From the NCBI RefSeq assembly GCF_054482525.1, contig NZ_CM137006.1: a stretch of 64,000 nucleotides of DNA; one strand, 5' to 3'. A program made the translations under genes and the position numbers. The notes under the pieces are model-generated. The model ran no database searches and was not told where the DNA came from. It worked only from the letters and a program-made list of their open reading frames with translations. Of this stretch, positions 6,523-6,832 are shown piece after piece. The first letter of the stretch is position 1, and every line of letters starts with the position of its first letter.

Positions 6523-6598
6523 GGCCCTTTAGCTCAGTGGTGAGAGCGAGCGACTCATAATCGCCAGGTCGCTGGTTCAAATCCAGCAAGGGCCACCA
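6523..6598 (+). tRNA. ileZ: tRNA-Ile (anticodon CAU, lysidine type; ileX/ileZ-like)
   Basis: 76 nt ending in CCA; near-identical to E. coli ileX; anticodon loop cuCAUaa. Confidence 0.85.
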
Positions 6599-6599
6599 G

Positions 6600-6676
6600 C
6601 CGCCACTAGCTCATCAGGAAAGAGCGTCAACCCTTTAAGTTGAGTGTGCGAGGTTCGAGTCCCCGGTGGCGGTCCA
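6600..6676 (+). tRNA. tRNA, probable Lys (anticodon UUU), with unusual C33 and C1:G72
   Basis: 77-nt cloverleaf; D stem gctc/gagc, anticodon stem tcaac/gttga, loop ccTTTaa, T loop ttcgagt, encoded CCA; one mismatch in the T stem. Confidence 0.55.
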
Positions 6677-6678
6677 GT

Positions 6679-6754
6679 GCCGACTTAGCTCAGTAGGTAG
6701 AGCAACTGACTTGTAATCAGTAGGTCACCAGTTCGATTCCGGTAGTCGGCACCA
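6679..6754 (+). tRNA. tRNA-Thr (anticodon UGU)
   Basis: 76 nt; acceptor gccgact/agtcggc, discriminator A, CCA; anticodon loop cuUGUaa. Confidence 0.8.
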
Positions 6755-6757
6755 TAT

Positions 6758-6832
6758 GCGGGCATCGTATAATGGCTATTACCTCAGCCTTCCAAGCTGA
6801 TGATGCGGGTTCGATTCCCGCTGCCCGCTCCA
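6758..6832 (+). tRNA. tRNA-Gly (anticodon UCC; glyT-like)
   Basis: 75 nt; from memory, apparently identical to E. coli tRNA-Gly2 (GCGGGCATCGTATAATGGCTATTACCTCAGCCTTCCAAGC...CTCCA). Confidence 0.85.

Follow-up and report, generated by a model that had tools for sequence, protein, structure and literature searches.

What do four tRNA genes do between the late regulator and the lysis genes of a temperate phage, and where did they come from? The question is raised by an array at positions 6523 to 6832 of a 64,000-nucleotide (nt) stretch of contig NZ_CM137006.1 (NCBI RefSeq assembly GCF_054482525.1; hereafter the window), in the Q-to-lysis slot of a lambdoid Escherichia coli prophage with an HK97-type head and a lambda-type tail. 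We consider it probable, if far from certain, that the array is a moron-like tRNA cassette of two modules and supplies decoders of low abundance, with its second tRNA as a weak passenger. The first module would consist of a promoter, ileZ, and argN and would be common to Shiga-toxin (Stx) phages; the second would be a Thr(UGU)-Gly(UCC) pair that arose as a copy of the host thrU-tyrU-glyT operon and has lost tyrU.

Four tRNA genes and their predicted transcription signals

ARAGORN identified exactly four tRNA genes in the window, all on the plus strand, with spacers of 1, 2, and 3 nt and a CCA end encoded in each; the coordinates, lengths, close spacing, and anticodons of the initial annotation agree with this prediction to the nucleotide. 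They are tRNA1, a lysidine-type tRNA-Ile2 (CAU; 6523-6598, 76 nt), tRNA2, an argN-family tRNA with anticodon UUU that is labeled "tRNA-Lys" (6600-6676, 77 nt), tRNA3, tRNA-Thr(UGU) (6679-6754, 76 nt), and tRNA4, tRNA-Gly(UCC) (6758-6832, 75 nt). Against the Rfam covariance model RF00005 they score 72.5, 44.4, 73.8, and 64.9 bits, respectively, all above the gathering score of 29 bits, with E values from 1e-15 to 5e-08 that lie far beyond chance. tRNA1 has the same sequence as ileZ of Stx2 phages (AP012530; 100% identity, extending about 40 nt upstream) and has 68 of its 76 positions in common with K-12 ileX. It shares with ileX the anticodon arm GCGA-CUCAUAA-UCGC and the pairs C4-G69 and C5-G68, which are used by TilS. 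Because of the identity to ileZ, the likeness to ileX, and the RefSeq label tRNA-Ile, tRNA1 is, judged by sequence, an AUA-reading lysidine-type Ile tRNA, as first proposed. tRNA4 is identical over the whole gene to host glyT, also as proposed, and tRNA3 is likewise identical to host thrU.

The placement of the array between a Q terminator and the lysis genes also holds. Upstream lies a gene for a 229-amino-acid (aa) late-gene antiterminator Q (5639-6328, plus strand; Pfam PF06323, E = 8e-92), whose ortholog in the near-identical prophage of strain 165 bears the RefSeq name "bacteriophage antitermination protein Q"; a PDB search with Q returned no relative. Downstream, a Pfam search placed a P21-type holin gene, S, at 7124-7339 (plus strand). 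The stop codon of Q overlaps a candidate late promoter pR' (TTGCAA-17-TATATT by promoter scan; 6312-6340, plus strand), which is followed by the hairpin of a candidate intrinsic terminator tR' (6392-6419, plus strand), CCCGC-loop-GCGGG between flanking A and T runs (leader fold z = -3.3), that would end a leader RNA of about 70 nt. We infer that these three elements match the lambdoid Q-pR'-tR' layout. Within the leader (6345-6417), sub-threshold Rfam matches were seen to the Salmonella prophage small RNAs (sRNAs) isrK (22.7 bits) and isrJ (24.5 bits); by score the leader falls outside both families, and its position is analogous.

The array was initially assigned to the Q-dependent late transcript, and it does lie within it, but this is not the whole account. 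A sigma-70-type promoter was predicted directly before it (TTGCAA-17-TATTAT; 6485-6513, plus strand), with the -10 hexamer ending 9 nt before the 5' end of tRNA1 and a G+C-rich discriminator, CCTGCGCCC. This promoter is identical in Stx2 phages, where homology starts just 5' of the -35 hexamer. Among 98 related loci there are 30 distinct upstream sequences, in all of which TTGnnn/TATTAT, the spacing, and the distance to the tRNA are kept while the promoter spacer and the upstream DNA diverge. On the other side, the cassette boundary is exactly the CCA of the Gly gene, followed by at least eight unrelated downstream sequences in different phages, many of which have a terminator 200 to 290 nt past this CCA. 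In the window this is a predicted intrinsic terminator at 7039-7064 (plus strand; GCCCGC-TTTT-GCGGGT and a T-run), 60 nt before the holin start. A promoter conserved across contexts together with a terminator downstream points to a self-contained predicted unit of promoter, genes, and terminator (a moron) inside the Q-dependent operon; with signals of its own, the array is therefore probably expressed in the lysogen too. The best-scoring promoter-like sequence of the region (TCGGCA-16-TATAAT, 6746-6773; 10/12) was rejected as an internal promoter: it is built from the thrU 3' end and the glyT D-arm and is also present in the host genes, so it is probably a chance match.

Between the array and its terminator lies a 200-nt noncoding trailer (6833 to about 7020-7035, plus strand) predicted to form three long, nearly perfect hairpins (minimum free energy [MFE] -80.9 kcal/mol, z = -5.5) that matches no Rfam family and holds no credible open reading frame (ORF). 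In a divergent copy of the locus (IMG/VR locus L104), its second hairpin has three compensated pairs despite a 31-nt apical deletion. Within the late leader, the trailer may act in processing or stability, or it may be an sRNA. No ORF of at least 50 aa was found on either strand of 6442-7123, where shorter ORFs are not credible; there is therefore no protein cargo behind the array, in line with the original view that no toxin follows it. A 43-aa minus-strand ORF annotated as such in a related phage record (ON470583) lies inside the hairpins and was set aside as unsupported.

Taken together with this layout, we propose the following scheme. In the lysogen, the sigma-70 promoter would yield a short precursor that stops at the cassette terminator. 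After induction, Q-modified RNA polymerase from pR' would read through tR' and the cassette terminator, so that the tRNAs would be made together with the lysis and morphogenesis mRNAs; expression would thus be constitutive in the lysogen and strong after induction. The four tRNAs would be cut free by RNase P and trimmed at their 3' ends, and C34 of tRNA1 would become lysidine through the action of TilS.

Origin and distribution of the modules

The tRNA genes were at first thought to form a set different from the Ile-Arg-Arg cassette of Stx phages. Comparison with the ileZ-argN-argO cassette of Stx2 phages (933W type; AP012530, FM180578), which occupies the same slot 3' of Q, pR', and tR' and 5' of the lysis genes, does not bear this out. 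The promoter block and ileZ are identical (100%), slot 2 has the argN scaffold in both (84%), and only argO is replaced in the window, by Thr and Gly. The two nevertheless differ: the Stx2 cassette has UCG in slot 2 and argO(UCU) in slot 3, whereas the window has UUU with C33 followed by Thr(UGU) and Gly(UCC); the window lacks stx genes; and the PF06323 Q of 229 aa contrasts with a 162-aa Q in the Stx2 phage. An intermediate arrangement is found in the ompW prophage of E. coli O157:H7 (PPompW; LC567818 and related records), which has the same Q, pR'/tR', promoter, ileZ, and UUU/C33 slot 2 (98.1% over 377 nt) but keeps argO in slot 3. Its slot-2 copy differs by a 1-nt deletion in the D-stem and a G3·U70 pair, and ISEc20 follows.

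The Thr-Gly pair has another source. In the host thrU-tyrU-glyT-thrT-tufB operon, thrU and glyT match tRNA3 and tRNA4 base for base, and positions 6678-6832 of the window match at 100%, in two pieces flanking tyrU, thousands of genomes, including K-12 derivatives. Relative to this operon the cassette lacks tyrU and 200 nt of spacers, thrT, tufB, and the host promoter. Traces of the host flanks are retained: the TAT between tRNA3 and tRNA4 consists of 1 nt (T) of the K-12 thrU 3' flank and 2 nt (AT) of the glyT 5' flank. These three nucleotides are suggestive of a captured thrU-tyrU-glyT segment that lost tyrU and the spacers cleanly.

The pair also occurs without its neighbors. In the Stx2f phage phi467 (L134; LN997803, 1-1660), Thr(UGU)-Gly(UCC) lies about 500 nt 3' of stx2fB and directly 5' of S, with neither ileZ nor a slot-2 gene, and the pair alone is also present in strain AJ1. 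Given this arrangement, ileZ-"Lys"-argO in the O157 ompW prophage, and ileZ-argN-argO-stx2 in Stx2 phages, promoter-ileZ-slot 2 and Thr-Gly are best regarded as two distinct modules, shuffled by recombination within one slot. In phi467, the Thr gene is preceded by 6 nt, GAACCA, that are shared with AJ1 and could be a remnant of the 3' end of another tRNA.

Of 5,426 complete E. coli genomes, 599 (about 11%) contain at least 80% of the 371-nt array, which also occurs in the GenBank phages vB_EcoS-689R5 (99.5%), vB_EcoM-606R7, and PhiR47_1. In a sample of 120 IMG/VR loci picked with a pattern from the 3' part of tRNA2, 90 have all four genes in register. When one genome per species was searched with a tRNA2-derived pattern, the slot-2 scaffold was found only in E. 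coli, Shigella flexneri, and Edwardsiella hoshinae. The cassette stands behind at least three regulators (the 229-aa Q, a 273-aa antiterminator, and a helix-turn-helix protein), and the lysis cassettes downstream differ. RefSeq annotates the array automatically in many genomes, inconsistently for slot 2, and the literature on Stx-phage tRNA genes and on phages 689R5, 606R7, PhiR47_1, and phi467 yielded no published description of it. The array is a mosaic of known parts, the tRNA morons of the lambdoid Q-lysis slot, and only the argN-derived UUU/C33 tRNA is surprising.

Such a mosaic could also be neutral baggage, that is, recombinational debris in the foreign-DNA hot spot between Q and S that hitchhikes with prophage modules and brings no measurable benefit. 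The cassette edges are indeed mosaic junctions, the Thr and Gly genes duplicate host genes exactly, singleton alleles at conserved tertiary positions occur in all four genes (e.g., Thr C56U and G24A), and tRNA2 has decayed in several lineages. Debris would not be expected, however, to retain promoter hexamers in diverging surroundings, to be carried by 11% of complete genomes, downstream of three or more distinct regulators, or to keep a consensus ileZ allele in 79 of 90 arrays. Moreover, a compensated change from C6-G67 to U6-A67 in the Gly copy of 12 arrays shows selection on structure, as do the compensated pairs of the Thr copy of L104. We therefore regard neutral baggage as a rather unlikely explanation, although the strongest of the rivals that we weighed.

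The prophage itself provides the test of a further possibility, tRNA-dependent lysogeny, in which integration disrupts an essential host tRNA gene and the cassette brings the replacement. This is known in mycobacteriophages, including a case with tRNA-Lys(UUU) (PMC10865867). Beyond the holin gene, the lysis cassette (7124-8755, plus strand) continues with DUF1327/YdfR, lysozyme, and Rz genes (Pfam PF04971, PF07041, PF00959, and PF03245 for the whole cassette), followed by a head-tail module (HK97 type and lambda type, respectively) that extends to about 32.9 kb, after which E. coli chromosomal genes begin, including zinT, msrPQ, hprRS, dcm, and vsr. No tRNA gene or fragment was found at this right prophage end or elsewhere in the window (the left attachment site lies outside it), prophages at other sites, such as the O157 ompW prophage, carry the same cassette, and host thrU and glyT are intact in cassette-bearing genomes. 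We disfavor this explanation as highly improbable.

Compared with the annotated prophage of strain 165, to which it is closely related, the window prophage has about 1.06 kb extra between Rz and an HNH endonuclease gene (8756-9860). The insert holds an 88-aa ORF (8911-9177) without a Pfam match and a minus-strand ORF for a 179-aa YfbU-domain protein (9183-9722), and looks like a second moron.

The argN-derived UUU tRNA

The initial reading of tRNA2 as Lys-like is correct for the anticodon, UUU, but not for the body of the gene. As a copy of host lysT the gene is untenable: the alignment is that of unrelated sequences, the acceptor, anticodon, and T stems differ, and U73 replaces A73. It shares instead with Stx argN the CCGCCAY acceptor stem, the D-arm, a T-arm with an A51·C63 mismatch, and discriminator U73, and it has a C1-G72 pair. 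Stx argN(UCG) matches it at 84.4% identity and the Arg(UCU) copy of IMG/VR locus L088 at 89.6%; from the anticodon loop of the latter, that of tRNA2 is reached by two transitions, CUUCUAA to CCUUUAA, which give both the UUU anticodon and C33. U33 is near-universal in tRNAs and is present in tRNA1, tRNA3, and tRNA4. On these alignments, tRNA2 is an argN derivative whose anticodon drifted or shifted from Arg (UCU or UCG) to UUU with C33. Re-registering of the loop to make an ochre suppressor or frameshift tRNA was also considered and rejected, as the 5-bp stem and 7-nt loop allow one register.

Whether such a tRNA works is doubtful. C33 and U73 are unfavorable for decoding and for LysRS by established identity rules. 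tRNA2 is the most polymorphic member of the array, with 16 of 55 variable sites versus 31 of 227 in its three neighbors (Fisher P = 0.009), and has decayed in several lineages, which makes its function uncertain. The slot-2 copies of ETEC4071, PPompW, and L104 score below the RF00005 gathering score of 29, a U8C haplotype is found in about 20% of arrays, and alleles with D-stem and internal deletions also occur. The Prokaryotic Genome Annotation Pipeline (PGAP) leaves slot 2 unannotated in three genomes (CRKP-1, Ec-042-T20, and ETEC4071) and calls it tRNA-Lys in strain 165. The record of the closest phage, vB_EcoS-689R5 (ON470583; slot 2 at 4301-4377), annotates Met, Thr, and Gly tRNAs, omits slot 2, and calls ileZ "tRNA-Met."

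The RF00005 score of tRNA2, 44.4 bits, is low as well, on a level with the 43.0 bits of Stx argN and below the 56.7 bits of the L088 Arg(UCU) copy. Two other comparisons are less clear-cut. MFE folding gives a cloverleaf for the L088 copy and for neither tRNA2 nor Stx argN, a weak indication, given how frequently in silico folding goes wrong for tRNAs without their modifications. In a sample of 17 slot-2 haplotypes, too shallow to be decisive, 94.7% of alignment cells at pairing positions were paired, a share attained by 38 of 500 shuffles; two pairs were compensated.

Several features weigh against a mere passenger. tRNA2 keeps 20 of 21 cloverleaf pairs and is better paired than Stx argN, in which two G·U pairs of the acceptor stem stand where tRNA2 has Watson-Crick pairs. 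One pair of its anticodon stem has changed from G-C to A-U with compensation. No UUU-type copy seen departs from the loop core C33-UUU-A37-A38, which does not resemble free decay; C32 varies in a few. The allele of the window occurs more often than any other, in 62 of 120 IMG/VR loci. Balancing these points, we consider a weakly functional or decaying passenger most likely and an active tRNA about one-third likely.

Three side observations concern the same scaffold. Stx argN itself (L003, 3132-3208; AP012530; 43 bits) has U73, the A51·C63 mismatch, and a G3·U70 wobble in its acceptor stem; G3·U70 is the classic AlaRS identity determinant. In L104, slot 2 has an argN-type scaffold with the loop ACCAGAU ("Leu CAG," again with C33) and a longer variable region. 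In Edwardsiella hoshinae (L132, 1226-1302), an argN-type scaffold with the loop region AACUUUGAG lies beside a Gly(UCC) gene. Slot 2 looks, from its sequences, like a scaffold on which anticodon arms swap or decay.

Codon supply and tRNA-targeting defense

If the array is a codon-supply cassette, the prophage should use the cognate codons more than the host does. Codon usage was compared between 29 late genes (7,758 codons), 9 early genes (1,688 codons), and 27 flanking host genes (7,796 codons), with odds ratios for all prophage genes combined against the host flank and ranks among 59 codons. ATA (odds ratio 1.80, rank 5), GGA (1.72, rank 7), and ACA (1.59, rank 9) are enriched, as had been anticipated, but AAA, the major Lys codon and the fourth one named at the outset, is depleted (0.66, rank 50). 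With AAA depleted and tRNA-Lys plentiful in the host, supplementation does not account for tRNA2. For the other three, the array could provide extra Ile2 (AUA), ThrU (ACA/ACG), and GlyT (GGA/GGG) for codons that the prophage uses more than the host. Codon supplementation thus fits the Ile, Thr, and Gly tRNAs modestly, and not the UUU tRNA.

The fit is weakened by four points. The enrichment is modest (about 1.4- to 1.8-fold) and belongs to a broader bias toward rare codons. AGG (odds ratio 3.90, rank 1) and CGG (2.10, rank 3), the codons served by argO and argN of the sister cassette, show enrichment too, and the window array has a tRNA for neither. The enrichment is not specific to late genes, where it had been expected, and early genes show more of it. 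Finally, the Thr and Gly copies are identical to the host genes and therefore add dosage only.

The tRNA cluster of phage T4 comprises Ile-CAU, Thr-UGU, Gly-UCC, Arg-UCU, and others. The window array resembles such clusters of virulent coliphages in its anticodons for minor A-ending codons, its 1- to 3-nt spacing, and the rationale of codon compensation (Bailly-Bechet 2007, as cited in PMC7946995). Unlike them, it belongs to a temperate phage, includes two exact host copies, and has its own promoter inside a Q-dependent operon.

An alternative hypothesis is that the cassette serves against defense systems, its tRNAs replacing host tRNAs destroyed by nucleases of competing elements; here the UUU anticodon on a foreign Arg scaffold would make tRNA2 a nuclease-resistant Lys decoder. 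The anticodons UGU and UUU of the cassette match the targets of two such nucleases, P2 Old and PARIS AriB. Old, responsible for the classic exclusion of lambda by P2, removes the anticodon arm from host tRNAs, among which tRNA-ThrU(UGU) is the critical target and tRNA-Lys(UUU) is another substrate; it needs CNG motifs at positions 28-30 and 40-42 plus A37 (PMC12445682). In that study, which used a library of 245 tRNAs, the cell was rescued by phage tRNA-Thr(UGU) whose CNG motif was altered and whose stem was shortened, and the ThrU anticodon arm abolished protection (PMC12445682). AriB cuts tRNA-Lys(UUU) at 40/41, and phage T5 counters it with a tRNA-Lys whose anticodon stem is changed (PMC11464382). 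tRNA2, too, differs from host tRNA-Lys in this stem: its sequence, UCAAC/GUUGA, has no CNG motif and differs from GUUGA/UCAAU of lysT, including at the AriB cut site (U40-U41 versus C40-A41). Substitutions between tRNA2 and argN cluster in the anticodon arm (6 of 17 positions versus 6 of 60 elsewhere, P = 0.02). In three related cassettes the Thr allele is devoid of CNG motifs, and its stem is either fully compensated (GAUGA/UCAUC in L104) or shortened by uncompensated changes (G42U/C plus U43C in L012 and L060).

Yet the Thr gene of the window does not fit this hypothesis. It is host thrU, with its CUG/CAG motifs and A37 intact, and should therefore be cleaved like the host tRNA rather than protect; the phage tRNAs shown to resist nucleases depart from the host at just this point. 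Altered Thr stems occur in only 3 of 106 Thr copies. tRNA2 is noncanonical in its C33 and U73, with the consequences for decoding and LysRS noted above, and its frequent alleles carry U8C, G18A, or deletions. Furthermore, CNG motifs are absent from ileZ, and the literature examined describes no nuclease that attacks Ile2 or GlyT. We consider a defense role of the cassette as a whole unlikely. Slightly less likely still is a more pointed version in which tRNA2 would be an Arg-scaffold tRNA recruited for Lys codons and, through its foreign anticodon stem and C33, invisible to PARIS AriB, PrrC, and P2 Old, with slot 2 and the Thr gene forming an evolving antidefense locus. It is hinted at by the exchange of anticodon arms (UCG, UCU, UUU, and CAG) on one constant scaffold, by the CNG-free Thr alleles, and by the "C-UUU" loop kept in the Edwardsiella copy.

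We retain, as probable, the reading of the array as a two-module moron that supplies scarce decoders. What it changes is mainly a matter of tidier annotation: a common tRNA block of E. coli prophages is the ileZ-argN module of Stx phages joined to a host-derived thrU-glyT pair. The RefSeq label "tRNA-Lys" sits on an argN derivative, which is not to be counted as a Lys tRNA without evidence. With a promoter of its own, the cassette would probably give lysogens extra Ile2, ThrU, and GlyT capacity constantly. The cassette carries UGU, exactly the anticodon that P2 Old depletes to exclude lambda; if it were true that tRNA2 or the variant Thr alleles shield lambdoid phages from tRNA-cleaving defense, the importance of the locus would be greater.

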